DNA from: Nitrososphaera sp.
GTDB taxonomy: Archaea; Thermoproteota; EX4484-205; JAAOZO01
Direction of reading: 5' to 3'
DNA: 64,000 nucleotides
NCBI GenBank assembly: GCA_039793485.1
Contig: JBAMLO010000049.1
Span: 4,157-68,156 of the forward strand
Every line of letters begins with the position of its first letter. Position 1 is the first letter of the stretch. Positions 8,018 to 51,661 of the stretch are shown here, in pieces. The notes under the pieces are model-generated. The model was given only the letters and a program-made list of their open reading frames with translations. It made no database searches and had not been told where the DNA came from. The position numbers and the translations under genes were made by a program.

Positions 8018-9544
8018 TTGGTTCAAGAAAGGATTAGACCAAGATACGTCGGTCTCTTAAACTTTATTTCTAGAATTTTTGCTCTTTTTGTTGGCTTTGC
8101 TTTTCTTACGCTTGTTTCTAGAAAGCTTCCTGTTGAGATCTTTGGGGCATGGCAGTACTTTTCTTCAGTACTCACGTATTTTGTAATACCTGCTTCCGTG
8201 ATTAACTTCTGGGCAACGAGAGAAGCAGGAAGAGAAAAGGCAGTTGGTCGGACTACGTTGCAATTAAGCTTTTTTACTTCTTTGGCTTCTCTTTCTCTCT
8301 TTTTAGTCTTAGCCAATCTAAACCTTTTTGTAAGGACAGAAATTTCAAACTTAGTTATTTACGTTTTTGCTCTTTGGATTGTTGCATATTTCGTTACAAC
8401 GTCAGCTGAAGCTATAAACTATGGCTTAAACCCAACACTTAACGTAATTTCTTCTATTGTATTTGAAGCAACAAAGCTCTTCTTTGGAGTACTGTTAGTT
8501 GTTGTTTTCAAGTTAAGCTTACTTGGCGCTGTTCTTTCAATCATATTAGCTTTTTTCCTTGAGTTTATGTTTTTTGTAGTTATGAATCCAAAAATGTTGT
8601 CTGGCAATTTTGATCGAACTTTAATAAGAAAGTGGGTGAGCAACGCATGGTTGCCGTTGATTAGTGCGCTGCCTGGCTTTATAGCTTCATTAGACGTCAT
8701 ATTTCTAGGATACTTCTTAGGAAGTAGCTCAGTAATTCCAATAGCGTATTTTAAGGCTGCTCTAACTTTCGGAAGTATTGTTGGTTACGCTGGTGCAATA
8801 TCATTTGCAATTTATCCAAAAATACTAAGAGAAGGCATTGACAACTCAAAGTCTTATATTGAAGATATAATTTCCTTAACAAACATGTTTGGAATTCCAA
8901 TGATGTTTGGAGCCATAATCTTGTCGGAACCTCTTTTATGTATTCTAAGGGAAGAATACAGTATTGCAAGAAACGCTCTTATCTTACTTTCAGTGAGTAG
9001 CTTACTTGGGGCAAACAGAAGCATCTTTACTTCTGTTCTGTTAGGATCAGAAAGGGCTGATGAAAAAGTGAGCTCTTTTTCAAAAGACTTAGTTAATTCT
9101 CTCCTGTTTAAGCTTCCAATAATTGATTCTATTAATTCATTGCTTTACGTAGTAACTTTAGCTTTAGCTACGATTGCGCTTTCTGGTCTAAAAGTTGGAT
9201 ATGAACTTTTTGCTACTGCTTTAGCATTTAGCAACTTGCTTTGGAACTTAGTTTTTACCTTTTACTACTTCGTTAAAGTTAAATCGTTAGTAAAGTTAAG
9301 TCTTCCTAAAAATTCATTCATAAAGTACACAATTTCAAGCTTGATAATGTCTGTTGTTCTCGTTCTTATGTATCCAAAAAGTGCGGTAAGTGAAAAGCTG
9401 TTTTTAGTATTGTATGGCGTTCTTCCAGTAATCGTAATTGGCGCTGCTGTATATTTTCTAGTTTTACTTCTCATAGATAAGAACACTAGAGTTCTTGTAA
9501 GAAGAGTTATTCTTCTTCTCACCAGCTTAACTAATTCGAAGTAG
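8018..9544 (+). CDS. Polysaccharide biosynthesis flippase (MOP/Wzx-like multi-pass membrane protein)
   Basis: About 14 predicted hydrophobic helices. The architecture is that of an oligosaccharide flippase family protein. Confidence 0.55.
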   Translation: MVQERIRPRYVGLLNFISRIFALFVGFAFLTLVSRKLPVEIFGAWQYFSSVLTYFVIPASVINFWATREAGREKAVGRTTLQLSFFTSLASLSLFLVLANLNLFVRTEISNLVIYVFALWIVAYFVTTSAEAINYGLNPTLNVISSIVFEATKLFFGVLLVVVFKLSLLGAVLSIILAFFLEFMFFVVMNPKMLSGNFDRTLIRKWVSNAWLPLISALPGFIASLDVIFLGYFLGSSSVIPIAYFKAALTFGSIVGYAGAISFAIYPKILREGIDNSKSYIEDIISLTNMFGIPMMFGAIILSEPLLCILREEYSIARNALILLSVSSLLGANRSIFTSVLLGSERADEKVSSFSKDLVNSLLFKLPIIDSINSLLYVVTLALATIALSGLKVGYELFATALAFSNLLWNLVFTFYYFVKVKSLVKLSLPKNSFIKYTISSLIMSVVLVLMYPKSAVSEKLFLVLYGVLPVIVIGAAVYFLVLLLIDKNTRVLVRRVILLLTSLTNSK

Positions 9545-31787: not shown

Positions 31788-32780
31788 TTATTTGTCGAGA
31801 TTAATTTGAGGTAAGGGCCACATTAGAAGTATCTCGTAGTTTATTCCCATAGGTTTTTCCTTAGCGCTTCCAATAAGAGTGCTTGAGCCTAACAGTAAGT
31901 CCAAAATTGATGGTTTTGGAAGCGAAATAACCTTGGTTGGTGCATCTTGTGGCAAGCCTGCAAGTTGTTTTGCTCTAGAAACCGCATACTCGAAGCTTCC
32001 AACTTCATCAACCAGTCCAACCTTCAGTGCTTGCTTTCCTAAGTATGGTTTAGCAGTTACAACTTCGCTTAGGTTTACTTTGCTTCCTCTGTTTTCTACA
32101 ACCTTTTCTATGAAGTCCTTAGCAGTTTCATTTACCATTTCTCTAAATATTTCTTGTTCGTTTTCAGTTATGTTTCTATATGGGCTGCCAATATCTTTAA
32201 AGTTACCGCTCTTAAAGGTGTATACTTCAACTCCTAGCTTATTTAATAGGTTGCCGTAATTTATAAGTACGGAAACCGCTCCTACCGAACCTGTAAGTGA
32301 CAAAGGTGAGGCTATTATTTCTTTTGAAGGCAAAGCTATCATATATCCCCCAGATGCCCCATATTCAGTTATGTACGCAACAACTGCTTTCTTTTCTGCA
32401 AGTTCCTTTACTTGGTAATAAATTTCTTCTGAGGCAGCAGCACTTCCTCCGGGGCTGTTTATCACAAAAAGAACACCTTTAGCATTTGAGTCCTCTTCCA
32501 CTGTCTTTAAGAGGCTTCTTACACTACTTGGAGTTATTGTTCTCCCCGAAATAAAACTGGATTCTTCGTATGCAATTGTACCTGAAAGTTCTACTATGGC
32601 TAAGTAGTTCTTACCTGGACCTTTACTTGGACCTGTAAACTCTAGGTACCCCACTACTAGAGTCAGCACCACTAGTATGACGATTAGAGCTAAGATCTTC
32701 TTCTTTTTTCCACTTTGATTTTCTTTCATAAATATTTTTAGTAAAGCTTTCACCATATAAAATTTATCGTGAGCTAACAA
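31788..32780 (-). CDS. sppA: Signal peptide peptidase SppA (S49 family, 36K type)
   Basis: N-terminal TM anchor and a ClpP/crotonase-like S49 domain with the GGYMIA region. Confidence 0.7.
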   Translation of the reverse strand: MLAHDKFYMVKALLKIFMKENQSGKKKKILALIVILVVLTLVVGYLEFTGPSKGPGKNYLAIVELSGTIAYEESSFISGRTITPSSVRSLLKTVEEDSNAKGVLFVINSPGGSAAASEEIYYQVKELAEKKAVVAYITEYGASGGYMIALPSKEIIASPLSLTGSVGAVSVLINYGNLLNKLGVEVYTFKSGNFKDIGSPYRNITENEQEIFREMVNETAKDFIEKVVENRGSKVNLSEVVTAKPYLGKQALKVGLVDEVGSFEYAVSRAKQLAGLPQDAPTKVISLPKPSILDLLLGSSTLIGSAKEKPMGINYEILLMWPLPQINLDK

Positions 32781-32804
32781 GAGAACCTCCTGCTAAGCGT
32801 GAAG

Positions 32805-33021
32805 GCGAACTACGAAAGCTTAAATAAACGTTGAGATACTAAAAACTTAGGGAACGTTTCTTATGCAGAAGGATGTTCAGGTCTGTGTTGAAGGAAAGGT
32901 TTTCAAGCTGAATAGGCTTGTAAAATGGCAGAGCTGTGAACTCAGCGAACCAGCAGATGAAGAGATAGGCGTGAAGTCTACCATAGGTACTGGAAGCCCT
33001 TCTGAGGGGAGAGTAGTTCGC
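32805..33021. ncRNA. Candidate structured ncRNA / repeat element, copy A
   Basis: 217-nt intergenic segment closed by a perfect 9-bp inverted repeat (gcgaactac ... gtagttcgc). It shares an exact 19-mer aaacgttgagatactaaaa and further blocks with copy B at 43.7 kb. Confidence 0.35.
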
Positions 33022-33042
33022 GTAAGTTGAGCCCAAGGTGGT

Positions 33043-33611: not shown

Positions 33612-34724
33612 ATGATGCTTGAGCCAAAAGCGCAGGACTATCTCTTTCCTTTAACTAGAGGTTATCTTCCGCCTCGTCTTCCCTTTAGGGAAAAAGAACT
33701 AAGTGAGCTAGAATCTTTCTATCTTACTGGAATTAAGCTAGGATCCTTTCCTACCTTTCTCTTAATTGGACCAAGAAGCTCAGGAAAAACCACACTTGCA
33801 CTTAAGCTAGCTGAAGGCTTAAGAGTGAAGTTAGGTCTCAGAAGCATAGTAATTGACTGCAGCGCTGAAAGCAGTGAATTCAAAATAATTTCGAAGACGA
33901 TTAACATTCTTGGCATAACTTCAAGTAGACTTAAGGGTTCTTCAACAGAAGAACTTTTATCTTTCTTACTGAGATATTTTGCTTATGACAAACTTAAAAC
34001 CTTAATGGTTCTTGATAACATTGAATGTTTGGGCATTAGCAAAAATAAATTCTTGCTTAGCGCTCTACTGAAACTAAATGAAAACTTCAGAGAGGCCAGT
34101 AGAAACCTCGCGCTACTTTTTACAGCTAATGAAAAAGAATTTGAAAACCTGAGGCAATCAATAAAAGAATTCCAGAGGGTCCCAGTACTTAGGTTAAAGA
34201 GGTATACAAAAGAACAAGTTTACAACATAATAAAGTATAGGATAAGTTTGTTGCCTCTTCACCTTAAGTTTTCTAAGAGTAGCATAGAGCGTCTTGCTGA
34301 ACTCTCAACCAGTTATGAAGATGTAAGCCTAGCTCTTTCCCTTCTTTCGAGTTTAATTTTAGAGGCAAAAAGTACAAGAAAGGAAGAGATAACTCAAAGC
34401 GACGTAGATGACATTTATTCTAAAACGATCATTTCACGTAGTCGAGAATCTTTTACTCTTTCTGATGAGGAGGCGCTAATTTTCAACGTAATCTTAGAAC
34501 TAAAAGGAAACGAGTCTCTTAATCCAATAAAGTCTAGTCTTCTATGGGAAACTTATCAAAAGGTTTGCGAAAGAAAAGGAAAAAAGTTAATTTCATACAC
34601 AAAGTTCTGGAACATACTAGTTCAACTAGAAAGAAAGGGCTTAATAAAAAGGGATGTGAAAAGCTTTGGAAGGTTTGGGAGGTCAACTTTAATTTTCGTC
34701 CATAATGAACCAAATAGAGCTTAA
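33612..34724 (+). CDS. Orc1/Cdc6-family AAA+ protein, divergent paralog with a C-terminal winged helix
   Basis: Conserved N-terminal LPPRLPFREKE (hRE motif). Walker A GPRSSGKT. The Walker B is atypical at VLDNIE, where DE has become DN. Sensor-1 LFTAN. C-terminal wH with GRFGRS. Confidence 0.6.
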   Translation: MMLEPKAQDYLFPLTRGYLPPRLPFREKELSELESFYLTGIKLGSFPTFLLIGPRSSGKTTLALKLAEGLRVKLGLRSIVIDCSAESSEFKIISKTINILGITSSRLKGSSTEELLSFLLRYFAYDKLKTLMVLDNIECLGISKNKFLLSALLKLNENFREASRNLALLFTANEKEFENLRQSIKEFQRVPVLRLKRYTKEQVYNIIKYRISLLPLHLKFSKSSIERLAELSTSYEDVSLALSLLSSLILEAKSTRKEEITQSDVDDIYSKTIISRSRESFTLSDEEALIFNVILELKGNESLNPIKSSLLWETYQKVCERKGKKLISYTKFWNILVQLERKGLIKRDVKSFGRFGRSTLIFVHNEPNRA

Positions 34725-34974
34725 AATTAGAAAAAGAGCTTTAACCCCTTTTTATCGAATACTGAAGGTGCTTTCAGAAGAGGAAGAGCTAACTATTACT
34801 CAAATTGAACTAAGGGCAAGAGTAAATCACAAAACAGCTGTATCCAACCTTATCTTGTTAAAGAATGCGGGAATGGTGTTTGAAGTATCGCTAGGTCGAG
34901 TAAAAATGTACAGACTAAATAAAGACAACGAAAGAGTACAAATTTTAATCAAATTATTTTCTTCTTGGCCTTGA
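34705..34974 (+). CDS. Small winged-helix DNA-binding protein
   Basis: 89 aa with an HTH-like TITQIELRARVNHKTAVSNLILLKNAGMV. It overlaps the end of the Orc1-like gene by 20 nt. Confidence 0.3.
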   Translation: MNQIELKIRKRALTPFYRILKVLSEEEELTITQIELRARVNHKTAVSNLILLKNAGMVFEVSLGRVKMYRLNKDNERVQILIKLFSSWP

Positions 34975-36120
34975 GCTGCCTTTCTTTTTTTCTGCTATAA
35001 AGTTCATCAAAGGAATAGTTTCAAATATGATTGTTCTGGTGGTTTCATGGTATTTTGTTTTCAGCTCTTTTATTTTTCCAGCTCTTTCCTGACTTTTTGA
35101 TATCCTTATCCATTTTTCTGACACCCTATTTGGTCTAGAAAGCCTAATGTATCCACCTTTTTTCGACTCCATAAGAGCAATCGCTAACAAATCGTAAATA
35201 TATGGAATTAATGACCACGACCTCTTCTTTTGAACAGTTGCAAGTATAAAGTCTGCGTCCGCTATTCTCTTTAAAAATTCATAAGCTTTCGTGCTGTCAT
35301 TCGCAATGTTTAGAAAGTTTCCATATATCCAGTCTAAAAGTTCATCGGGATTCATGTCTACGCTCATGAGGTGCGCTTTTGCTTCGTTTATGCTCTTTGC
35401 ATAAATTGCATGTCTAATAGCATCAAATATGCTTTCCTCTCTAAGTCTGTTTCCAAGTAAACTTTTCACTGACCCGTTGCTTATAACTTCGCTTTCTGTA
35501 GTTAATGCCTCCAAGTCTGTTAAAGCACTTCTCATGTCTCCTCCAGACCTTTCAGCAATTGCTTCCAAAGCTTCGTCTTTTATGAGAATGCCTTCTTCTT
35601 CAACAATCTTCTTTAGCCTTTTTAGTACTTGATCTTTTCTTAATCTATTAAATTCTATCATAAGACATTTTTCTCTTATTTCTCTTAAGCTTTGCTTCCA
35701 GGGGTCATTTGCAACCATAACTATTGGACTAGTTGCCTGATCAATTAACTGCTTTATAGCACTAACAGCCCCAACATCTTCTCGCTGGTATATCCCATCA
35801 ACTTCATCAAGGAAAACTAAGTTTGGTTTTCCTGAAATCGATCTGCTTCTTGAAGCTGGAAGAACTTTTTCCAGTATAACGTCTTTTGTTCTTGAGTCGC
35901 TTGCATTAAGCTCGATTAAGTTGTAGCCAAGCATTTTTGCTGCAATTTCTACTGTTAACGACTTTCCAACTCCTGCTGGTCCGTATATCAGTGCTGCCTT
36001 CTTTCCTTCTGGAGACCAGTTTTTTAACCAGTTTAAAAATTCCTCTCGCGCTTTTTCATTTCCAACTATCTCATTCCAGCTTTTGGGTTTAAATTTAGTA
36101 GTCCAAATTTCTCTAAGCAT
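34954..36120 (-). CDS. rfcL: Replication factor C large subunit
   Basis: N-terminal W..KY.P....EIVG and Walker A GPAGVGKS. Adjacent to rfcS. Confidence 0.85.
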   Translation of the reverse strand: MLREIWTTKFKPKSWNEIVGNEKAREEFLNWLKNWSPEGKKAALIYGPAGVGKSLTVEIAAKMLGYNLIELNASDSRTKDVILEKVLPASRSRSISGKPNLVFLDEVDGIYQREDVGAVSAIKQLIDQATSPIVMVANDPWKQSLREIREKCLMIEFNRLRKDQVLKRLKKIVEEEGILIKDEALEAIAERSGGDMRSALTDLEALTTESEVISNGSVKSLLGNRLREESIFDAIRHAIYAKSINEAKAHLMSVDMNPDELLDWIYGNFLNIANDSTKAYEFLKRIADADFILATVQKKRSWSLIPYIYDLLAIALMESKKGGYIRLSRPNRVSEKWIRISKSQERAGKIKELKTKYHETTRTIIFETIPLMNFIAEKKKGSSRPRRK

Positions 36121-36169
36121 TCGTTGATTTCACAGCTCACGATTAACTTTAAATGTCTTTCTCCTAACT

Positions 36170-37156
36170 CTAGCCACTGCTCTGTTTCTTTCTTTTATCT
36201 GCTGAAAGCATACTTATTTTAGCAAGTAAAGCAGAAATTTGAATTTCTGGATCCGCTCCAGAGTGAATTCTGTATTCTACATCAGCCAACATAGAAACCA
36301 TGTCTGCTTTTTCTTGAGCGCTGAGAGTTGATTGTGTCACGTTTTTGTGAATTCCTCTTATTATTTCTTTTGGGGGTATTCCTTCATTGTACAGTAAGTT
36401 GTTTAAGGTGTTCATAGCTGCCTCTAGGTCACCATGAAATGCTTTTTCAAATACTTGGTCGATTTTTCCAACTCCGGCATACCCAATGAAATCCTTTACT
36501 GATTTTACTGTTATGGCTCCTTCAATAGCTGCAGCACCTTGTGCAAAGTTAATTGCTTTTCTCATATCTCCTTCTGACTTTTCAACTATCATTTTTAATG
36601 CCTCTTCTTCGTATTTTATGTTTTCTTTAGTTGCTATTTCCTTCAGTCTTTCTAGGATTGCGCTGTCAGGAAGTGGACCGAATCTAAAAACTGCACACCT
36701 AGATTGTATTGGTTCTATTATCTTGTAAAGTTCGTTTGCTATTAAGATAAATCTTGTTGTGTTTGAGTATCGCTCCATCGTCCTCCTTAAGGCTTGTTGC
36801 GCTTCTTCGGTAGTGCTATCGCACTCATCCAGTATGATAATTTTAAATGGCACTTCGCCCAGAGGAACTGATCGAGCAAATTCCTTAACTCTATTTCTTA
36901 TAACGTCAATTCCTCTCTCATCTGAAGCGTTCAACTCTATGTAGTTTCCTGAAACATTTCCATTGTACATGTCGTAAACTAAAGCCAGTGCAGAAGTTGT
37001 CTTCGAAGTTCCAGGCGGCCCAACGAAAAGCAAGTGGGGCATATTCTTAGTTTTTACAAATGTTTCAAGTCTCTTGACGATTTCTTCTCTATCAACCATT
37101 TCGCTTAGACGCCTTGGTCTGTACTTTTCAGTCCAAACTTGCTCAGCTTCCATCAT
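36170..37156 (-). CDS. rfcS: Replication factor C small subunit
   Basis: WTEKYRP...GPPGTSKTT, the DEAD-like ILDECD motif, and the SRC motif (QSRCAVFRF). Confidence 0.9.
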   Translation of the reverse strand: MMEAEQVWTEKYRPRRLSEMVDREEIVKRLETFVKTKNMPHLLFVGPPGTSKTTSALALVYDMYNGNVSGNYIELNASDERGIDVIRNRVKEFARSVPLGEVPFKIIILDECDSTTEEAQQALRRTMERYSNTTRFILIANELYKIIEPIQSRCAVFRFGPLPDSAILERLKEIATKENIKYEEEALKMIVEKSEGDMRKAINFAQGAAAIEGAITVKSVKDFIGYAGVGKIDQVFEKAFHGDLEAAMNTLNNLLYNEGIPPKEIIRGIHKNVTQSTLSAQEKADMVSMLADVEYRIHSGADPEIQISALLAKISMLSADKRKKQSSG

Positions 37157-37412
37157 CTTGATTTTATTTAGTATTTTTAAAGCAATTTAAAGTTTTTATT
37201 AAAGCTAATGTTTTTGCTGAGGTAAAATAACTAAAAATGGACGTCTCTAAAGTCTTCTTCTAAGAAGCTCATTTTTAAGTTTTCTTAAGCTTTAGACCCT
37301 TCTAACTTTCAGAAAACTTTTGTTCAAACAACTAAAGAGTCTTAGTGTTAACCTAAATTAAACTTAAAAGATAAGGTTATATTACTCTCTTACTAGAACT
37401 ACAACTATAAGT

Positions 37413-37955
37413 TTGATGGAAAGCGAGCGTGCCCTAGTGAGTCTTTTAGTTAAAAAAGGCATAAGCAGAGTGAGAGCTGAGCTACTGATAAAGCCCATAA
37501 AAGTGGCACCAAAGTCGGAAACAGAGCTTTCTTCTACTCTTTTCGGAGAGATTCAAGTAAAGAAGTCTTCAAGTACTGAAATTCCATACTTTGCTGCTAC
37601 CATTATGGAGCGAAACGGGTTGTTGGAAATACCAAACTCTGACTTATCGGAGAAAAACCTAAAAATGCTTAGCTGGAACGAAAAGTACAAGGAAACAAAG
37701 CTTTCTTCTCTACCTGAAAACTTCTATCTCCTAGCGCAAGAAGCGCTTTTGAATACGAAAGATAAAAAAATTGATTCTCTAATTATTGAAATTGTTAGCT
37801 TAAGGATTAAAAAACTATTAAGATATCTCGTCCTTCCTTCAATTCCATCCGAGGTAATAAGTTCTTTTAGTCCAGAGGAGAAGTATCTCTTTTATTTGTT
37901 AAGAGAAGTTATAAGCTCATGGCAAAGGGAGGTGCTTGGAATTGGAGCAAGATAA
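37413..37955 (+). CDS. Possible GINS subunit (Gins23/Gins15-like)
   Basis: A 180-aa alpha-helical protein immediately upstream of, and overlapping, mcm. This is the position occupied by gins23 in several archaea. The assignment is by context only. Confidence 0.3.
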   Translation: MMESERALVSLLVKKGISRVRAELLIKPIKVAPKSETELSSTLFGEIQVKKSSSTEIPYFAATIMERNGLLEIPNSDLSEKNLKMLSWNEKYKETKLSSLPENFYLLAQEALLNTKDKKIDSLIIEIVSLRIKKLLRYLVLPSIPSEVISSFSPEEKYLFYLLREVISSWQREVLGIGAR

Positions 37956-39990
37956 AACTGAATCTATAACTGTTCTTTTCTCAAACTTCATTAGAAGCTT
38001 TTCTGACAACGAGGGTAAGTTTAAGTACTTGGATGCAATAATAAGTATGCCAATAAACTTAGAAAAATCTATAGTAGTAAGCTTTGAAGACATGCTCATT
38101 TTTGATAGTAAACTTTGTGAATTTTTAGAAAAGAATCCAAGTGAAGCAATAAAGCAGTTTGAAGAAGCTGCTTTAATGATTTTAGCTGAGCATGATGCTG
38201 AGTATGCAAAGAAGATAAGAAAAGTCAGAGTTAGAATAAGCGGCTACCCACAATCCGTAACAATAAGAGACCTTAATTCTTCTTTCATAGGAAAAATTGT
38301 TAAAATAGAAGGCGTCGTTGTTAGACAGTCCCAAGTAAAAACACAACTTGTTGAAGGAACTTTCAGGTGTTTGAATTGTGGAACTCTCATTTCGGTCGAG
38401 CAAAATTCTCAAAGTTTAACTCTTCCAAAGGCTTGTCCTGCCTGCAACGCTAACAACCCAAGTAATTTTGAGCTTGATCCCTCTAAGTCCGTGTTTGACG
38501 ACTTTCAAATGATTTCTATTCAAGAAAAACCAGAGTCTTTGCCAGCAGGACAAATTCCTCAAACTATTGACCTTAACTTAACTGGAGACCTAACAAATAA
38601 GGTCAGACCTGGCGATAGAGTTAAGTTAACTGGGATAGTTGGGATTCGTTACGCTAAGTCTGCGTTTGGTAAACCTAAGTCAAAGATATTTGAACTCTCA
38701 CTAGAAGTTAACAATGTTGAAATTGAAACAGAGGAAAGTTCAGACTTAGTATTAAGCGAAGAGTTAATTGAAAAATTCAAGAAAGATGTCAAGGATCCTC
38801 TTTTCTATAGAAAGCTGGTTTCTTCCATTGCTCCCTCAATACATGGTCTTGCTCACATTAAGGAGGCTATACTCCTGCAACTAGTAGGCGGAGTACCTAA
38901 GCAATTTAAAGATGGAATTAGAGTTCGTGGAGACATAAACATTTTACTTGTTGGAGACCCTGGAACTGGAAAGTCGCAACTCTTGAAGTACGCTCAAAGA
39001 ATTGCACCACGTGGTTTGTATACTTCTGGCAGAGGTGCCACAGCAGCTGGACTGACGGCAGCAGCGGTAAGAGATGAAAGTGGCACGTTCATGCTAGAAG
39101 CGGGTGCCTTAGTGCTCGCCGATAAGGGTTTAGCAGCTATCGATGAGTTTGAGAAAATGAGAGAGGAAGATCGAGTAGCAATTCATGAAGCTTTAGAACA
39201 ACAAACATGTAGTATTGCGAAAGGAGGAATAGTGGCTACTCTAAACGCTAGAACTGCAGTTCTAGCTGCAGCCAATCCTCAACTAGGGCGTTATGATCCC
39301 AATAGAAGCTTTTACGACAACATAAGCTTGTCAAGCACGATACTTTCAAGATTCGACCTTTATTTCATATTGAGAGATGTTCCAAATCCATCGGCTGATG
39401 AAGAGCTTGTCACTCATATTTTAGCGCAGCATCGTTACGAAGAAGCTGTAGAAGAGGAAATCTTTGATATCAACTACTTAAGGAAGTTCATCGCTTATGC
39501 AAAAACAATTGAACCAAAGCTTAGCAAAGAAGCAGAGGCAACTATTAAGGCATACTTCCTCTCCTTGAGAAGTGCAAGCACAAGCGCTTCACTTCAAATA
39601 ACCCCAAGGCAACTAGAATCTCTTATAAGGCTGAGTGAGGCTAGAGCTAAGCTGATGCTTAGGAACGAAGTTCTAAAAGAAGATGCTGAAGTAGCAATAA
39701 GGTTGTACAGAATTTCGATGGAGCAAGTTGGAATTGACATGGAAACAGGACAAATAGACGTGGATGCCATAACTGGTAAGCCTCGTTCAACAAGAGAAAA
39801 AATGTCTACAATAATGTCAATCTGCGACCAACTTGAAAGCGAGTTTGGTTCTGCCTCGATAGAAGAAGTTCTAAAGAGGTGTGAAGAAAAAGGAATAGAC
39901 AAAAATGATGCGAGACGTTTAATAAACCAGCTTTTGAGAGATGGCGTGTTTTACTCTCCTGACGACAAATCGCTGAAAAGAGTTAGGTGA
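37936..39990 (+). CDS. mcm: MCM replicative helicase
   Basis: Zn-finger CxxC...CxxC, Walker A GDPGTGKSQ, Walker B DEFEKM and arginine finger SRFDL. The start is TTG at 37936 or a downstream ATG. Confidence 0.9.
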   Translation: MELEQDKTESITVLFSNFIRSFSDNEGKFKYLDAIISMPINLEKSIVVSFEDMLIFDSKLCEFLEKNPSEAIKQFEEAALMILAEHDAEYAKKIRKVRVRISGYPQSVTIRDLNSSFIGKIVKIEGVVVRQSQVKTQLVEGTFRCLNCGTLISVEQNSQSLTLPKACPACNANNPSNFELDPSKSVFDDFQMISIQEKPESLPAGQIPQTIDLNLTGDLTNKVRPGDRVKLTGIVGIRYAKSAFGKPKSKIFELSLEVNNVEIETEESSDLVLSEELIEKFKKDVKDPLFYRKLVSSIAPSIHGLAHIKEAILLQLVGGVPKQFKDGIRVRGDINILLVGDPGTGKSQLLKYAQRIAPRGLYTSGRGATAAGLTAAAVRDESGTFMLEAGALVLADKGLAAIDEFEKMREEDRVAIHEALEQQTCSIAKGGIVATLNARTAVLAAANPQLGRYDPNRSFYDNISLSSTILSRFDLYFILRDVPNPSADEELVTHILAQHRYEEAVEEEIFDINYLRKFIAYAKTIEPKLSKEAEATIKAYFLSLRSASTSASLQITPRQLESLIRLSEARAKLMLRNEVLKEDAEVAIRLYRISMEQVGIDMETGQIDVDAITGKPRSTREKMSTIMSICDQLESEFGSASIEEVLKRCEEKGIDKNDARRLINQLLRDGVFYSPDDKSLKRVR

Positions 39991-42194
39991 AATTTTTGAG
40001 AGTAGAAGACCTTGAAATACCAGAAGAGGTAAAAGCTTCGCTAAGAGAGCTTGGCTTTAGTACGCTTTATCCTGTTCAGGAGCAGTCAATTAAAGGTGGC
40101 CTGTTGGAAGGGCGAAATCTTTTAATTTCTGCACCCACTGCATCAGGAAAAACTTTAGTTCCGATTATCGCAGCCGCTAATAAAGTTTACAACAATGAAG
40201 GAAAAGTTGTTTACTTAGTGCCATTGAAGGCACTCGCAAACGAAAAGTTCGAAGAATTTAATTCTGCGCTAAAAATAAAAAAGAAGGATGGTTCAAAGAT
40301 TAAGGTTGGAATAAGTACTAGTGATTTTTATTCAACTGGAGAAGAACTTAGAAAGTTCGACGTAATCATTGCAACTTATGAAAAAATGGATTCTTTGATT
40401 AGACATAAGCCATCTTGGTTAAGGAACATATCCTTACTAACGTTCGATGAGATTCACTTAATAGGTTCTGCAGATCGAGGTCCCGTTGTTGAAATGATCT
40501 TAACTTGGCTAAAAGAAATTTCTCCCAATTCTCAGAACATTGCTTTAAGCGCAACAGTAACAAATGCCAAAAAAATTGCTGAGTGGCTTAACGCAAAACT
40601 AGTTCAAAGCGACTGGAGACCAGTTCCGCTTAAGGAAGGAGTATTCTTCTCCAACAGTATTGTTCTTGAGGATGAAACCATTCAAGTGAACAACGTCTTT
40701 GGAGATGAACTCCAAGATTTAGCAAATCATGCAATAAAAGACAGCAGAGGCCAAATTCTCTTTTTTGTTCCAACGCGAAAAAGAGCAGTAGCCCTAGCTA
40801 GGAAGCTTTCTCCAGTATCGTCGCTAGCCTTAAGCAAAAATGAAAAGGCAATTCTCGAAAAAATTTCTTCTGAACTTCTTTCGATTGAAGATTTAACTCC
40901 AGTAGGTTCTGAGCTTGCCAACTTGGTGAAGAAAGGCGCCGCATTTCATCATGCTGGGCTTACTTCATTTCAGAGGAGAAAAATTGAAGAAGCTTTTAAG
41001 AAGCACTACATCAAGATTTTAGTTGCAACCCCAACTCTAGCTGCTGGAGTTAACTTGCCTGCTAGGTATGTTTGTATAACTTCTTTAGAAAGGTACTCTC
41101 AAGAAGTTGGGTACCAGCAAATACCTATTTTAGAGTACAAGCAAATGGCAGGTAGAGCTGGAAGGCCTCAGTTTGACGATGTTGGTTATTCTTTGATATA
41201 TGCTAGAAAGCAAGAAGATATCGACTATTTTGTAGACAACTACATCAAGGCAAAGCCTGAGCCAATAAGGTCAAACCTCACATTGTCTAGCTATCTTTCT
41301 TCTGCCGTTCTCTCAACTATAGTTGTTGGACTAGCTTCAGATGAAGTTGAACTTGAAGAGGTATTTGAGAAAACTTTTCTAGCAAAACAAACAACTCCGC
41401 AATTAATTAAATACAAAGTAATGCAATCCTTAGACTACTTGATGAAAAATGGCGCAGTTGTTCTTTCAAATGGGATAAAGGCAACTCCCCTAGGAAGAAG
41501 AATTGCTGAACTTTACGTGCTCCCAGAAACTGCCTTTTCTATATTGAATAAGCTTTCTTCTCTTCCACGAAAAGTTTCAGAGATTACACTCTTGCAAATT
41601 GTAGTTTCTACTCCTGATATGCATCCCCTTCTCTCGTCTACTAGAAAGGATTTGCTGTGGATTGATAGTTTTATAAGCGAACATTACGATGAACTTTACT
41701 TCTTAGAAACGGAATCTGCAATTCAAGACCAACTGAAAACAATTAGGGCGATTGAGATGTGGATAAACGAGTACTCTTTAGACAAAATTTATGAAGAATT
41801 AGACCTTGAGCCTGGCGACTTGTATGCTTTAAACGAAAAAGCCACATGGCTTCTCTTTGCAGCTTCTGAGATTGCAAAGTGGTCGAAGTATCCGGAGCTC
41901 GTCAAGAACTTTGAGACACTGAGTATGAGAGTAAAGTATGGAGTGAAGAGCGAGCTATTAGACCTAGTAAGCCTAGAGGGCATCGGGCGGGTGAGGGCCA
42001 GAAATCTGTATAAACTTGGCATAAGGAGTAGGGAGGATATCGCTAAAACTCCATTTGATGAGCTTGTTAAAGTTCCTGGAATAGGTGCAAAATTAGCGTA
42101 TAAGATAAAGTCCCAAGTTGGAGGGCAAGTAAAAGAAGTGGGAACAAAAGAAGTTACACAAAAAAGTTTATTTGGCAACGAGAAAAATTATTAA
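39987..42194 (+). CDS. hel308: Hel308/Hjm Ski2-like DNA helicase
   Basis: Motif I APTASGKT, motif II DEIH and motif VI QMAGRAGR. The C-terminal HhH domain is followed by a basic tail. GTG start overlapping the mcm stop. Confidence 0.85.
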   Translation: MKFLRVEDLEIPEEVKASLRELGFSTLYPVQEQSIKGGLLEGRNLLISAPTASGKTLVPIIAAANKVYNNEGKVVYLVPLKALANEKFEEFNSALKIKKKDGSKIKVGISTSDFYSTGEELRKFDVIIATYEKMDSLIRHKPSWLRNISLLTFDEIHLIGSADRGPVVEMILTWLKEISPNSQNIALSATVTNAKKIAEWLNAKLVQSDWRPVPLKEGVFFSNSIVLEDETIQVNNVFGDELQDLANHAIKDSRGQILFFVPTRKRAVALARKLSPVSSLALSKNEKAILEKISSELLSIEDLTPVGSELANLVKKGAAFHHAGLTSFQRRKIEEAFKKHYIKILVATPTLAAGVNLPARYVCITSLERYSQEVGYQQIPILEYKQMAGRAGRPQFDDVGYSLIYARKQEDIDYFVDNYIKAKPEPIRSNLTLSSYLSSAVLSTIVVGLASDEVELEEVFEKTFLAKQTTPQLIKYKVMQSLDYLMKNGAVVLSNGIKATPLGRRIAELYVLPETAFSILNKLSSLPRKVSEITLLQIVVSTPDMHPLLSSTRKDLLWIDSFISEHYDELYFLETESAIQDQLKTIRAIEMWINEYSLDKIYEELDLEPGDLYALNEKATWLLFAASEIAKWSKYPELVKNFETLSMRVKYGVKSELLDLVSLEGIGRVRARNLYKLGIRSREDIAKTPFDELVKVPGIGAKLAYKIKSQVGGQVKEVGTKEVTQKSLFGNEKNY

Positions 42195-42963: not shown

Positions 42964-43689
42964 ATGAACGAAATAGTAAATAAGATGTTGTATAGATCAA
43001 AAGAAACTTCTTCAAGAATAATCTTGGCCTTCGACCTAGATAGCGTAGAAGATTACGAAAGAGGGAAGAACCTCTTAAATCTGGTTGAGCCTTACTTAGT
43101 AGGCGTAAAATTTGGTTATCCTACGATATTGTCTTTTGGATTAGAAAGAATAAAAGAAGTAATTCTCTTGTTAAGAGAAAGAGGTCTCGTTTCAATAGCT
43201 GATGCTAAAATTGCAGACGTAAGTCATACCAACTCAAAAATTGCAAGAATACTGTTTAGGAATGGATTTGACGCTGTAATTGCTCATGGCTTTATGGGAT
43301 TCAAAGGGTCTTTAGATGGGCTGTCAAGAACTGTTAAAGAAGAAAACAAAGCCCTCTTCGTTTTAGCTACGATGTCTAATGAAGGAGCTTCAGTAATAAT
43401 GGACAAAGTTGTTGAGCAAATAATTAGTGAGTCTTTGTTAGCTGAACCCTCTGGTTTTGTAGTTCCTGCAACTAGGCCTGCTATGATCAAGAAGGTGAAA
43501 GAACTTTTGCCAATGAGCAACGAGCTTGTTCTCTTAAGCCCTGGAGTTGGTGCACAAGGAGCGCCATACGGTTCTGCAATAGCTAATGGTGCACACTTTG
43601 AAATAATTGGACGTTCTATCTATGAGTCTGCTAAGCCTCTTGAAGAAGTTAAGAAGATTATATTAGAACAAAAGAAGTTTTATTCCTAA
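42964..43689 (+). CDS. pyrF: Orotidine 5'-phosphate decarboxylase
   Basis: LAFDLD and the catalytic-lysine region DAKIADVSHT. It lies adjacent to pyrE. Confidence 0.75.
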   Translation: MNEIVNKMLYRSKETSSRIILAFDLDSVEDYERGKNLLNLVEPYLVGVKFGYPTILSFGLERIKEVILLLRERGLVSIADAKIADVSHTNSKIARILFRNGFDAVIAHGFMGFKGSLDGLSRTVKEENKALFVLATMSNEGASVIMDKVVEQIISESLLAEPSGFVVPATRPAMIKKVKELLPMSNELVLLSPGVGAQGAPYGSAIANGAHFEIIGRSIYESAKPLEEVKKIILEQKKFYS

Positions 43690-43724
43690 GTTAGCAAGAA
43701 GACCCCCATGCGTAAGCATGAAAT

Positions 43725-43921
43725 AAGTTGCGAAAGCCCAAACAAACGTTGAGATACTAAAACGTAAGCATAGATAAACATTAGCGCAATAGAGTAACGA
43801 GCTCTATGAAGTGGCGGAGCTGTGAATCCCACAAATCAACAGGTGAAAGAAAGCGTAAAGCTTACCATAAACGCCGGAAGCCTTCTGAAATGAAGAAAAA
43901 GCAGTTCACAAAAAGTAACTT
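43725..43921. ncRNA. Candidate structured ncRNA / repeat element, copy B
   Basis: Shares the exact 19-mer, the ggcRgagctgtgaa block, the ccggaagccttctga block and the gttgaaRgaaaggtttt block with copy A. It has an analogous closing helix aagttgc / gtaactt immediately 5' of the conserved gaaagc. Confidence 0.35.
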
Positions 43922-43961
43922 CCAAGTTGAAAGAAAGGTTTTAAAGTAAAGAATCAAAGCT

Positions 43962-45219: not shown

Positions 45220-45879
45220 CTACTTCCACCTACATACTACCATCTCGTGAGCCCTGTCAAACGGTTCTAGGTCTACTCTTTCTATTAGTTTAAAGCCAAG
45301 TTTTTCCATCTTTTTTATTTCTTCGTCTACTACTACATGAGGATCTTTTGTTGAGTCTATGCTGCTTGCCTTTATTGCTACGCATGCTATTCCTCTAGGC
45401 TTTAAATAGGCAAGAGCATTACTGTAAACTATGTCCGTTTGGTCTGGTTGCGCAACATCAGCGTAAATTAAGTCAACGTTCTCCACTAGGTAGCAATAGC
45501 TAAATGGCTTTCTTGCATCTGCAAGTATTGGGACTACGTTTGTTCTTCTTTTTGCAACTTTCTCAACTAAGTCTCTCATTGGTCTGAAAGCAACCTCAAC
45601 AGCATATATAGCACCATTTTTGGCTACATCGGAGACATGACTAACTGTTGTTCCGTTTGCTGCTCCCAAGTAAAGTATCTTAGAATCCTCTTTTATTGGA
45701 AAGTTTTTCAAGCCTTTCTTTATGGCGGCTGAGATCTTACTTCTGTAGGGATCCCAAACTCTGTACTCTTTTGACTCTACTTTAATCAGCTCTTCACCAT
45801 AAACAGAAAATCCTGGAACTAAGTTAAGGGTAAGAATTTTTTCATTTTCCTCAAAAACATTCTTGAAAATTTCTCTCAT
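45220..45879 (-). CDS. flpA: Fibrillarin-like rRNA/tRNA 2'-O-methyltransferase
   Basis: Fibrillarin family with SAM motif LYLGAANGTTVSH. Adjacent to nop5. Confidence 0.9.
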   Translation of the reverse strand: MREIFKNVFEENEKILTLNLVPGFSVYGEELIKVESKEYRVWDPYRSKISAAIKKGLKNFPIKEDSKILYLGAANGTTVSHVSDVAKNGAIYAVEVAFRPMRDLVEKVAKRRTNVVPILADARKPFSYCYLVENVDLIYADVAQPDQTDIVYSNALAYLKPRGIACVAIKASSIDSTKDPHVVVDEEIKKMEKLGFKLIERVDLEPFDRAHEMVVCRWK

Positions 45880-45883
45880 TATG

Positions 45884-46975
45884 CTACGCCTCCATCTTCA
45901 CTCCAATTTTTTTCAGTTTTTCTTTTAGTTCGGATTTTAATTTTTGACTAGAATCAACTCCAGAGAATGCATCAAACCTTGCAGCCATTACAATCTTGCT
46001 GGCTAGTGTTCTTGCTACCTTACCTCTTAGCTTCCTTGGAGCATTGTGAACTAGTGGATGCTGAAATATCATTCCATGCTTTGGAGGTTTGCTTCCTTCT
46101 TTTATTGCTCTAAATAAAGCCTTCTCTGCTCCTATAACTTGCACTGTAGAGGAAGGCATCTTAGCCAGTTCAACTAGTCCTCCTGCCTTTGTAATCAGCT
46201 TTGCAGCTAGCACTGGACCTGCAACTTCTGATAAGTTGGGTGCTATTTCTTTAGCTATTTCTGTAATTCTTTCGGTTAACTTATCTTTAAGCTTGTAAAG
46301 TGCTCTTACACCTTTTGCGTACTCGTAAATCGTTTCTTCGCTTTCTTTTCTCATAGGAGCCCCTATTGACTTTTCTGCTGCTCTCACAACTTCTTTCCCA
46401 ACTTCCAAGCGTTTACTATCTTTTTTTGTACTTAAAAGCAACTCTCTTGAAGGATACTCTGTAAGAAAACTTACATACTTTTCAGGGTTCCTTAAAACTC
46501 TCCTAAGTTCCGGAAAGAAGAGGTCGTTTAAATCCTGAAGTTTTTCTGTAAGTTCATTGATTGCTCCATTTATGCTTTCATAGGCGTTTACTAGAGCTAT
46601 TAGCTCCTTATCAAGCCTGGCAGAGTCTTCAGAGATTCTTTTACTTGTTATCTCCAGGGCAATTTCCCTATACTTGCTCAGGTAGTCTTTTACTCCAAAA
46701 AGTTCAGAAATTTTTTGCATGTTTTCTCTTACCCACCTACCCCCCCTAGAGGGTTGCTCGAGAATTGCCTTACCGTTTGCTTGCTCGATAACTTTCTTTA
46801 AGTTCTCGTCTTCAACAACGAACGTTGTGTCTGGGTGCTTTCTTACAAGATCTTCAAAGAGGCTTTGTTTTTGAAAATCTTTCTCGCTTTCTAAGGGAAA
46901 GACGTCCTCGACTTCTAAATTGCTGTTTAAGGTTATTATTCCAAGAGCTGTAGTTACTACGAAGACATTTTCCAT
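45884..46975 (-). CDS. nop5: Nop5 (Nop56/58) C/D-box sRNP core protein
   Basis: NOP domain with coiled-coil. Immediately upstream of flpA. Confidence 0.85.
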   Translation of the reverse strand: MENVFVVTTALGIITLNSNLEVEDVFPLESEKDFQKQSLFEDLVRKHPDTTFVVEDENLKKVIEQANGKAILEQPSRGGRWVRENMQKISELFGVKDYLSKYREIALEITSKRISEDSARLDKELIALVNAYESINGAINELTEKLQDLNDLFFPELRRVLRNPEKYVSFLTEYPSRELLLSTKKDSKRLEVGKEVVRAAEKSIGAPMRKESEETIYEYAKGVRALYKLKDKLTERITEIAKEIAPNLSEVAGPVLAAKLITKAGGLVELAKMPSSTVQVIGAEKALFRAIKEGSKPPKHGMIFQHPLVHNAPRKLRGKVARTLASKIVMAARFDAFSGVDSSQKLKSELKEKLKKIGVKMEA

Positions 46976-50578: not shown

Positions 50579-51661
50579 TCATGTATTTCGCTTCCAATCT
50601 AATAAGTTGTGAATAGCTAATATCCTTTTACAGGATTCTAGATCTTTGATCCATAGATCGATTAAATCCTGTGGTGTCATACCTCTACAGGCATCGCAGT
50701 AACATTCCTTAAATCTTATTCTTTCATCTCTCATATCATATAATTTACAATTTCTGAAATAAAGCCCATGTTTAGCTTCAAGAAACCACGAAAAATTGCT
50801 ATAACTTATTCTACTATATTTGAGCTTTCTTCCAACTCCGTAAACAAGCATTTCAAAATTTTTGTTGTTAGTTTTGCCTAACTTCTTTAACATGCTCAAT
50901 ACATATGGAAGAACGTCATTTAACAAACCTTGCTCAAAAAGTTCTCTAGAGGGCATGACAAAGGAAACATAGCCCATCTCTATCTCTTTTTTAAGAGACC
51001 AATATATTTGACGTAAGTTTGCTCCCTTAATTAAACCAATTAATGGAATGTCAAGACAAAGAAACTCGTTTGCAAGTTGTACTAATCGTATTGTTTGCGA
51101 CCAAGATTGATATAATGGTGCATCAGTGTATGTATAGTTGTCCGGTATCATTGTAGCATCTGGTTTTAGGTCTTCAATTAGCTTGAGGTAGTCATCTATT
51201 TTTAGCTTATCAATAAGTTCATCTGGCATAACTGTGGATAGTAATATTTTTCCATTAAATTCAAGGAAGTCATGAAGACTTTTGCTTAAAGCCTTTAGTA
51301 GCAGATCTTTATGGAGAATCAACTGCCAAAGTGGAACAAATATAGCGGATGTCTCTACCTCCTCTTTCCAGAACCACGAGCTCTGGTCTGTTACATCAAC
51401 TTGAGGTATAAAAGTCGAAAAGTTGACTTTTAACATGCTTTTCTTTTTAAGAGGCGGAAGTAAGAGGGGAGGAGGCTTGCTCTTTCCTCCAATTGGACAG
51501 TACTCTCTTAGTTTGCAGAACGACTTGGGATAAGTTATGCCTGTAAAGGAATGTCCCTTAATGCATAGATCTACAAGACAACTTTCAATTACACAACCAG
51601 GACATAGTTTTCTATAGTAGTAGCATTCTTCACAAAGTATTCCACATTTACTTTTTTTCAT
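50579..51661 (-). CDS. tRNA-guanine-transglycosylase-superfamily protein (TGT/DpdA-like) with an N-terminal Cys-rich extension
   Basis: The C-terminal CYCDAC followed 25 residues later by H (AIHNL) equals the TGT zinc signature C-x-C-x2-C-x25-H (E. coli CDCYTC...TIHNL). The N-terminus contains CGILCEECYYY, a CxxxCxxC-aromatic arrangement, plus four more cysteines. Confidence 0.5.
   Translation of the reverse strand: MKKSKCGILCEECYYYRKLCPGCVIESCLVDLCIKGHSFTGITYPKSFCKLREYCPIGGKSKPPPLLLPPLKKKSMLKVNFSTFIPQVDVTDQSSWFWKEEVETSAIFVPLWQLILHKDLLLKALSKSLHDFLEFNGKILLSTVMPDELIDKLKIDDYLKLIEDLKPDATMIPDNYTYTDAPLYQSWSQTIRLVQLANEFLCLDIPLIGLIKGANLRQIYWSLKKEIEMGYVSFVMPSRELFEQGLLNDVLPYVLSMLKKLGKTNNKNFEMLVYGVGRKLKYSRISYSNFSWFLEAKHGLYFRNCKLYDMRDERIRFKECYCDACRGMTPQDLIDLWIKDLESCKRILAIHNLLDWKRNT

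Follow-up and report, generated by a model that had tools for sequence, protein, structure and literature searches.

Genomic context of the two elements

We analyzed a 64-kb stretch of DNA (the window) from a Thermoproteota archaeon, in which two intergenic regions, here designated A and B, contain related sequence. In agreement with the gene context given in the first-pass annotation, A is flanked by sppA (Peptidase_S49, minus strand) on one side and by a TAN1/THUMP-like ORF on the other, and B is flanked by pyrF and pyrE. Pfam matches and syntenic loci identified a replication gene cluster directly downstream of A (window 33612-42194), which comprises the following genes:

33612-34724, orc1/cdc6
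34954-37156, minus strand, RFC large and small subunits
37413-37955, GINS-like ORF
37936-39990, MCM
39987-42194, Hel308-type helicase

No tRNA or Rfam family is found in the 64 kb (ARAGORN reported nothing in the window), yet synteny with locus L010 places fibrillarin and Nop5 genes at 45220-46975; any C/D box sRNAs encoded here escape the curated models. Two long ORFs have no Pfam family at E ≤ 1e-5 (8018-9544, plus strand, 508 aa; 50579-51661, minus strand, 360 aa).

Sequence shared by A and B

The first-pass annotation described A and B as related intergenic elements of about 200 nt; we find a size of 230-250 nt. The 19-mer AAACGTTGAGATACTAAAA is present exactly at 32826-32844 in A and at 43744-43762 in B, with a chance expectation of 0.04, and no third match with three or fewer mismatches occurs in the 64-kb window. 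In MAFFT and blastn alignments, A and B can be aligned over approximately 230 nt, including a 32-nt stretch that is 91% identical and an 83-nt stretch that is 73% identical. The blocks tggcRgagctgtgaa and ccata..ggaagcc..tctga were recovered from both copies. Other details of the annotation needed adjustment: the octamer gcgaaagc said to precede the 19-mer is present as CGAAAGC in A, where its first base is a, not g, and the block ggaagccYttctga is found in both copies in a form that is one base shorter in B than in A. The shared blocks and the 19-mer are thus real and far above chance.

Element A contains a fused remnant of tnpB

The plus strand of A contains a 55-codon ORF, and a called ORF elsewhere (P0014) is 96% identical to it. 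When this ORF was compared with 1.8e9 representative proteins using phmmer, it matched P0017 (E 4.7e-4), a 112-aa fragment of Pfam family PF07282 (Cas12f1-like_TNB) in which CHRCG...CSRCG and DRDLNACINIA correspond to the Zn ribbon and the RuvC-III motif of TnpB. P0017 has 69 relatives in archaeal MAGs, with names that include "IS605 OrfB family transposase" and "RNA-guided endonuclease TnpB," and these relatives reveal the true N-terminus of the family, MQKDVQVCVVGKVFKPNR.KVLALN. The opening protein match is weak when taken alone, and the case rests on pairwise and DNA follow-ups. In BLASTP, the ORF of A matched both the N-terminus of P0018 (MQKDVQVCVEGKVFKLNR, 14/18, 78%, 3e-7) and its C-terminal tail (W.S.EPSEPADEEIGVKPT..GSP, 20/44, 45%, pairwise E 9e-12), and in blastn the DNA of A matched loci L030 (which encodes P0017) and L033 on both sides of its deletion. 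None of the three relic ORFs has a Pfam match. The features of A, all on the plus strand, are as follows:

32763-32767, TTTAT, candidate target site/TAM abutting the 5' side of A (read from the sequence)
32768-33021, element A, very probably an internally deleted solo-tnpB IS200/IS605 relic (phmmer, BLASTP, blastn)
32768-32862, left end (LE), 95 nt (aligned with B, L016, and L033)
~32790-32804, weak hairpin region in the LE
32805-32813, 9-nt LE arm GCGAACTAC (inverted-repeat search)
32814-32828, putative archaeal-type tnpB promoter, with BRE-like GAAAGC (32814-32819) and TATA-like TTAAATAAA (32820-32828)
32826-32844, 19-mer, starting within the TATA box (in its 3' half) and reaching approximately to the expected tnpB transcription start (from sequence position)
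32863-33030, relic tnpB ORF, 55 codons plus TGA, in which the first 19 codons (32863-32919) run directly into the final ~36
32925-33021, omega-RNA-like 3' scaffold (five-sequence alignment, pair counts)
32936-32941, pseudoknot 5' strand GTGAAC
32950-32954 and 32989-32993, stem CCAGC / ACTGG
32966-32980, hairpin TAGGC-GTGAA-GTCTA
32997-33008, right-end hairpin
33013-33021, terminal motif (TEM) GTAGTTCGC
33022-33041, 20 nt 3' of the right end, putative guide segment of any omega RNA still produced (family architecture, PMC10055086)

From their position approximately 35 nt upstream of the tnpB ATG (32863), we infer that GAAAGC and TTAAATAAA constitute the tnpB promoter. The same position is occupied by TTTAAATA in L033 and by TTTAAAATAA in L030, and it is 94% conserved in L016, which carries an ortholog of A.

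All 69 database relatives of the TnpB C-terminus (P0017-P0085) are 62-192 aa fragments or internal-deletion derivatives, and in several of them (including P0018, P0022, P0041, and P0058) the first 15-80 residues are followed immediately by the last ~100, indicating that internal deletion of this tnpB family recurs across MAGs. The MAGs that contain deleted tnpB genes are labeled Asgardarchaeia, Odinarchaeota, Thermoprotei, Methanomethylicaceae, Culexmicrobium, and Woesearchaeota.

Element B is a precise insertion between pyrF and pyrE

In B, the left end is retained to about the expected transcription start site and is followed, after a deletion, by C-terminal tnpB codons. B is 77% identical to the P0017 locus L030 over 118 nt (blastn, E 3e-17) and also matches the RuvC-III/C-terminal part of TnpB at the protein level; stop codons interrupt its remaining tnpB codons. 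The following features, all on the plus strand, were assigned:

43679-43683, TTTAT, target/TAM of B (empty-site comparison with L026-L028)
43684-43909, element B, very probably a second, independently deleted relic, consisting of LE, last ~58 decayed tnpB codons, and right end (RE)
43707-43720, LE hairpin CATGC-GTAA-GCATG
43723-43731, LE arm ATAAGTTGC
43732-43737, BRE GAAAGC
43738-43746, mutated TATA CCAAACAAA, three T-to-C differences from the TTAAATAAA of A (from the alignment)
43744-43762, 19-mer
43763-43909, tnpB 3' relic and omega-RNA-like scaffold
~43763-43790, RuvC-III "NACINIAH" codons
43789-43807, hairpin ATAGAG-TAACGAG-CTCTAT
43822-43827, pseudoknot strand GTGAAT
43851-43863, hairpin AAGC-GTAAA-GCTT
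43882-43895, right-end hairpin CTTC-TGAAAT-GAAG
43901-43909, TEM GCAGTTCAC
43910-43961, ancestral pyrE upstream flank, outside B (kept in element-free L026, L027, and L028)

In loci L026-L028, whose PyrE proteins are 95%, 89%, and 84% identical to that of the window, the pyrF-pyrE spacer is only ~50 nt long and B is absent. The empty site of these relatives reads AAGTTTTTAT followed directly by AAAAGTAGC (the flank is further given as AAGTTTTTAT followed by AAAAGTAGCTCCAAGTTGAAAGAAAGGTTTTAAA), and the filled site in the window reads ...TTTTAT, then TCCTAAG...GCAGTTCAC, then AAAAAGTAACTTCCAAGTTGAAAGAAAGGTTTTAAAG. Comparison of the empty and filled sites and a repeat search detected no target duplication and no inverted termini at B. 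Because the empty sites of the relatives align across its junctions, B is a precise insertion after TTTAT, and a recent one. Exact-protein look-ups, which also recovered syntenic loci from relatives, identified loci of the same species (L010 and L011), where B differs only by one SNP and an indel of 3 nt. Such a recent insertion implies TnpA activity in trans in this uncultured lineage. B landed in the stop codon of pyrF (window 43679-43689): the gene ends TTT TTA T/AA in the relatives, and the C-terminus ...KKFL* of L026 has become ...KKFYS* in the window, where the new TAA (43687-43689) comes from the initial 6 nt of B.

The comparison with empty sites also settles two claims made about B in the first-pass annotation. 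The flank 3' of B contains GTAACTT (43915-43921) and GTTGAAAGAAAGGTTTTAAAG (43926-43946; including GTTGAAAGAAAGGTTTT), and the latter is the BRE/TATA-like promoter of the leaderless pyrE gene. GTAACTT had been paired with AAGTTGC (43725-43731) to form a closing stem that covaried with the one in A. Both sequences exist, but the argument fails because the 3' arm belongs to the flank that was there before the insertion; the true counterpart in B of the 3' arm of A is GCAGTTCAC (43901-43909). Similarly, the block gttgaaRgaaaggtttt does match at 19/21 positions between GTTGAAGGAAAGGTTTTCAAG (32887-32907) and GTTGAAAGAAAGGTTTTAAAG, with 0 such matches expected by chance in the window, but on the B side it lies outside the inserted element, in the ancestral pyrE flank. 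In A, GTTGAAGGAAAGGTTTTCAAG corresponds to tnpB codons 9-15; its partner, the ancestral pyrE promoter, is older than the insertion of B despite this 19/21 likeness.

Only three of the five pairs in the long stem of B are intact. Because its TATA box is mutated and this stem is broken, B is probably inert debris, as judged from its sequence, although it may still be mobilisable.

Relatives of the elements and scope of the searches

An ortholog of A was found only in L016, from a related species whose TAN1-like protein is 86% identical. The equally long spacers of L018 (84%), L019, L020, L012, and L017 show no homology to A. L016 keeps 24 nt more C-terminal coding sequence than A (NVAHSAMSF versus NIAHRVMSSMG). 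L033 is a second independent relic with TTTAT, a 92-nt left end containing the TTTAAATA box, a start that reads ATG-CAA-AAG-GAT-GTT..., and a right end that closes in GTAGCTCAC. L034, in a viral contig, is a near full-length relative with 58% amino acid identity, and similar hairpin-plus-tail sequences are present at both of its ends, as expected for TnpA sites. The pentanucleotide that abuts the left end is TTTAT in A, B, and L033 and TTTAC in L016. Subterminal hairpins are found near both ends and covary between copies; the likeness between left and right ends is clear in L033 and L034 and unconvincing in A and B.

The 64-kb window contains no intact tnpB or tnpA, and so a source copy and a mobilising TnpA are assumed. 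The exact 18-mer scan of 185k species genomes gave only nine chance bacterial matches, and a scan of viral contigs gave one chance match, inside a phage gene; the 19-mer is not conserved even in the ortholog in L016. Comparison of A with phage and plasmid collections by blastn gave no match, an nhmmer profile built from A, B, and L016 detected no additional copy, either elsewhere in the window or in 30 loci, and a metagenome scan with PyrE returned only relatives of 36-40% identity.

An omega-RNA-type fold in the right ends

We aligned five sequences (A, B, L016, L030, and L033) and wrote a structure with four helices. Helix 1 is a small hairpin; helix 2 is a pseudoknot between the loop of this hairpin (GUGAAC/GUGAAU/GUGAGC) and the terminal motif (GUUCGC/GUUCAC/GCUCAC); helix 3 is a longer stem (CCAGC/GCUGG); and helix 4 is an inner hairpin (UAGGC-GURAA-GYCUA). 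Across the five sequences, 79% of the cells are paired, compared with 24-39% when the partners are slid, and compensatory changes are found in four pairs, a number reached in 10 of 500 shuffles. Pairing reaches 90% in the pseudoknot to the terminal motif, which has one compensatory pair, and 87% in the inner hairpin, which has two. Every copy also has a variable right-end hairpin before the terminal motif (CCCU/AGGG, CUUC/GAAG, CCUUU/AAAGG, CUCCC/GGGAG, and CCUCG/CGAGG). Single-sequence folding z-scores for the plus strand are not distinctive (-1.7 for A and -0.7 for B).

A pseudoknot between a hairpin loop and the TEM, together with a right-end hairpin, is a hallmark of omega RNAs (PMC12558985). 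The shared 3' blocks are the 3' end of tnpB plus the right end, and they carry what reads as an omega-RNA scaffold. If such an RNA were made from A, its putative guide segment would overlap the Shine-Dalgarno sequence AAGGTGG of the TAN1-like gene (ATG 33046). The putative targets of a family TnpB would be TTTAT plus GTAAGTTGAGCCCAAGGTGG with the A scaffold and TTTAT plus AAAAAGTAACTTCCAAGTTG with the B scaffold. At gathering and permissive thresholds, Rfam 15 has no match to the window or to related, better preserved loci, as was already the case for the window at the gathering threshold and for the surroundings of either copy at E ≤ 10.

Pairing of the left-end arm with the terminal motif

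The 9-bp complement between GCGAACTAC (32805-32813) and GTAGTTCGC (33013-33021) noted in A is exact: the left-end arm and the TEM pair at 9/9 positions. Homologous arms pair at 7/9 positions in B (43723-43731 with 43901-43909), L016, and L033, and two of the positions covary, with C-G/U-A and A-U/G-C/G.U alternation. As the terminal motif also pairs with the hairpin loop of the omega-RNA-type fold, it has two alternative partners. The perfect complement in A falls outside the standard transposon model. The left-end arm lies upstream of the promoter, and the pairing may thus concern a single-stranded DNA intermediate or a read-through RNA.

Conservation of element A and the downstream operon

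The similarity between A and its ortholog in L016 differs markedly by segment. Identity is 92% in the sppA-proximal promoter, 57% in the left part of the left end, 94% from the BRE/TATA to the ATG, 89% in the first 19 codons, and 53% in the omega-RNA part. This distribution points to selection on the promoter-proximal 105 nt and not on the RNA fold: the promoter and first 19 codons of A appear to be under purifying selection, and the right-end half appears to be drifting. A is an older insertion than B.

In L018-L020, a TTTAAAAATT TATA box is found approximately 40 nt upstream of the ATG of the TAN1-like gene. This box is absent from the window and from L016, where the right end of the relic fills its place and the Shine-Dalgarno sequence AAGGTGG is kept. 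The difference from L018-L020 goes beyond the insertion of A, as ~200 nt of ancestral spacer are also gone. Because the ancestral TATA box of the TAN1-like/orc1-cdc6 operon is missing, the tnpB promoter of A has probably been taken over by this operon, which it would now drive with the relic as leader. In both species the relic ORF has stayed open up to an identically placed stop, 15 nt ahead of the ATG, and so it may be a translated leader. A is thus a possible case of a transposon promoter taken over for a replication-initiator operon.

Elements A and B as probable tnpB-only IS200/IS605 remnants

Insertion sequences of the IS200/IS605 type move as single-stranded DNA by "peel and paste," with a Y1 TnpA acting in trans. 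Insertion is precise, on the 3' side of a pentanucleotide (TTTAT in the present case), and leaves neither target duplications nor terminal inverted repeats. The scaffold of the omega RNA, which guides the TnpB nuclease, is encoded in the right end. Several features of A and B agree with this description: only remnants of tnpB are present, and they read towards the right end; both elements lie immediately 3' of the pentanucleotide; and there are no inverted termini and no target duplication, the junctions being seamless in the comparison of B with empty sites. Very probably, A and B are independently truncated, protein-less remnants of one tnpB-only (IS1341-type) IS200/IS605 family in this Thermoproteota archaeon. 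Each copy would then consist, in order, of a left end with a subterminal hairpin, the tnpB promoter (which contains the 19-mer), leftover tnpB codons, and a right end in which a stem-loop and a right-end hairpin are combined with a pseudoknot that involves the terminal motif.

Three described systems are instructive for comparison. In Sulfolobus islandicus, the left end is reported to be preceded by TTTAA in elements with both tnpA and tnpB and by TTTAT in those with tnpB only (PMC10640517). The solo-tnpB IS of S. islandicus REY15A (PMC10640517) resemble A and B in that the left end immediately follows TTTAT, tnpB is oriented towards the right end, an omega-RNA gene is conserved at the right end and 3' end of tnpB, and there are no inverted termini or target duplications. 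Unlike these elements, A and B have lost nearly all of tnpB and encode no nuclease; the comparison is one of layout. Protein-less IS605 derivatives that still encode omega RNAs (PATE-like) have been described in bacteria (PMC10055086). These share with A and B minimal, non-autonomous ends, an omega-RNA scaffold, and dependence on TnpA/TnpB in trans (Meers et al., PMC10055086). In contrast to PATEs, A and B differ by independent internal deletions and do not derive from the amplification of a single short element, no more than two copies are seen here, and the promoter and one stem of B are damaged. Finally, the omega RNAs of TnpB (ISDra2 reRNA and the haloarchaeal sotRNAs, PMC12558985) have the same loop/TEM pseudoknot and right-end hairpin and a guide derived from the flank, which is putative in A and B, but no Rfam model matches the clade described here, the scaffold of A lacks its natural 5' part, and the fold of A and B is a predicted one.

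Alternative explanations

The first-pass annotation offered a choice between a novel structured noncoding RNA and a MITE. The MITE option came close, in that A and B are very probably non-autonomous, protein-less derivatives of a mobile element, and the shared 3' blocks do covary, as an omega-RNA scaffold; neither a classical MITE nor a new RNA family describes them. A reading in which A and B are paralogs that encode a novel, independent structured RNA of ~200 nt, closed by a terminal helix, would fit the absence of an Rfam match, the covarying plus-strand helices (which include G.U pairs), and the perfect 9-bp closing helix of A with its homologous 7/9 arms in B, L016, and L033. We nevertheless regard it as very improbable: the sequence is accounted for by tnpB coding DNA and transposon ends, B is absent from close relatives, the syntenic spacers of L018, L019, L020, L012, and L017 have no homolog of A, the 3' half is the least conserved part (53%) in the sole ortholog, L016, and the 5' closing arm lies upstream of the BRE/TATA and hence outside any transcript from that promoter. 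Known RNA classes fare no better. RNase P, SRP, and riboswitch readings were rejected in view of the lack of a model match, the lack of conservation, and the absence of B in relatives, and a C/D box sRNA was rejected in view of chance-level matches to Rfam C/D models and of boxes that are not conserved among family members: the ATGAAGA noted in A is GGTGAAAG, GGTGAGGA, GATGTGAC, and GAGTGAGA in B, L030, L033, and L016. Classical MITEs mobilised by a DDE transposase would likewise be short, non-coding, and dispersed, and B is an insertion polymorphism; since terminal inverted repeats are lacking and the B junction has no target-site duplication, A and B are not classical MITEs, and their internal sequence is of tnpB/IS605 type. 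This explanation is very improbable, and equally so is the proposal that A and B are riboswitch-like cis-regulatory leaders of the TAN1-like gene and pyrE. Both elements do lie directly upstream of plus-strand genes, and the TAN1-like gene, although equipped with a Shine-Dalgarno sequence, lacks its own TATA box, but pyrE is leaderless, has its own BRE/TATA downstream of B, and lacks B in relatives; the elements are not conserved across species, and for A only a generic leader role is left, as already contained in the explanation favored above.

Two further explanations concern A. If it encoded a functional small protein (55 aa, and 61 aa in L016), with the upstream block as promoter and 5' UTR, this would explain why the frame and stop position are the same in the window, P0014 (96%), and L016 in spite of the 53% nucleotide identity of the 3' part, why the indels are of 24, 3, and 3 nt, why the first 19 codons are 89% conserved, and why 15 nt separate the end of the ORF from the TAN1-like ATG. 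However, residues after position 19 are not conserved, the opposite strand is also open over 52-68 codons, the homologous frame of B is interrupted upstream and its product would be of unrelated character, and the only homologs are TnpB fragments; such a protein is improbable. Less so, though still unlikely, is that A is a domesticated transposon end, serving as the only promoter of the operon and as a translated leader ORF, and that the arm/TEM pairing is an undescribed interaction between left and right ends. Under domestication, selection on A would predate the split between the window and L016, and the end-to-end interaction would act in RNA or in a single-stranded transposition intermediate.

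With the elements interpreted as IS200/IS605 remnants, a false lead for a new noncoding RNA family is removed, and pairs of archaeal intergenic "structured RNAs" can be protein-less IS200/IS605 relics that are overlooked by gene callers and by Rfam. What is gained are unannotated members of an archaeal omega-RNA clade for which a curated model is lacking, together with a usable alignment of that clade.

Other repeats and assembly gaps in related loci

Apparent insertions of ~100-227 bp that split the MCM, Hel308, and RFC genes in two NCBI MAGs proved to be scaffold gaps of 100 N, some of them with duplicated ends (L013 16151-16250 and 18804-18902; L014 12581-12679). A different repeat, 289 bp long and relatively GC-rich, occurs as an inverted pair in L012 (3774-4062 and 14221-14500) and also in L013-L015, with 89-92% identity. 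By blastn, the first copy is apparently missing from L013, an otherwise 99.8-100% identical strain, and the repeat also matches the read-through tail of the TnpB fragment P0026. The 289-bp repeat is probably another small mobile element.
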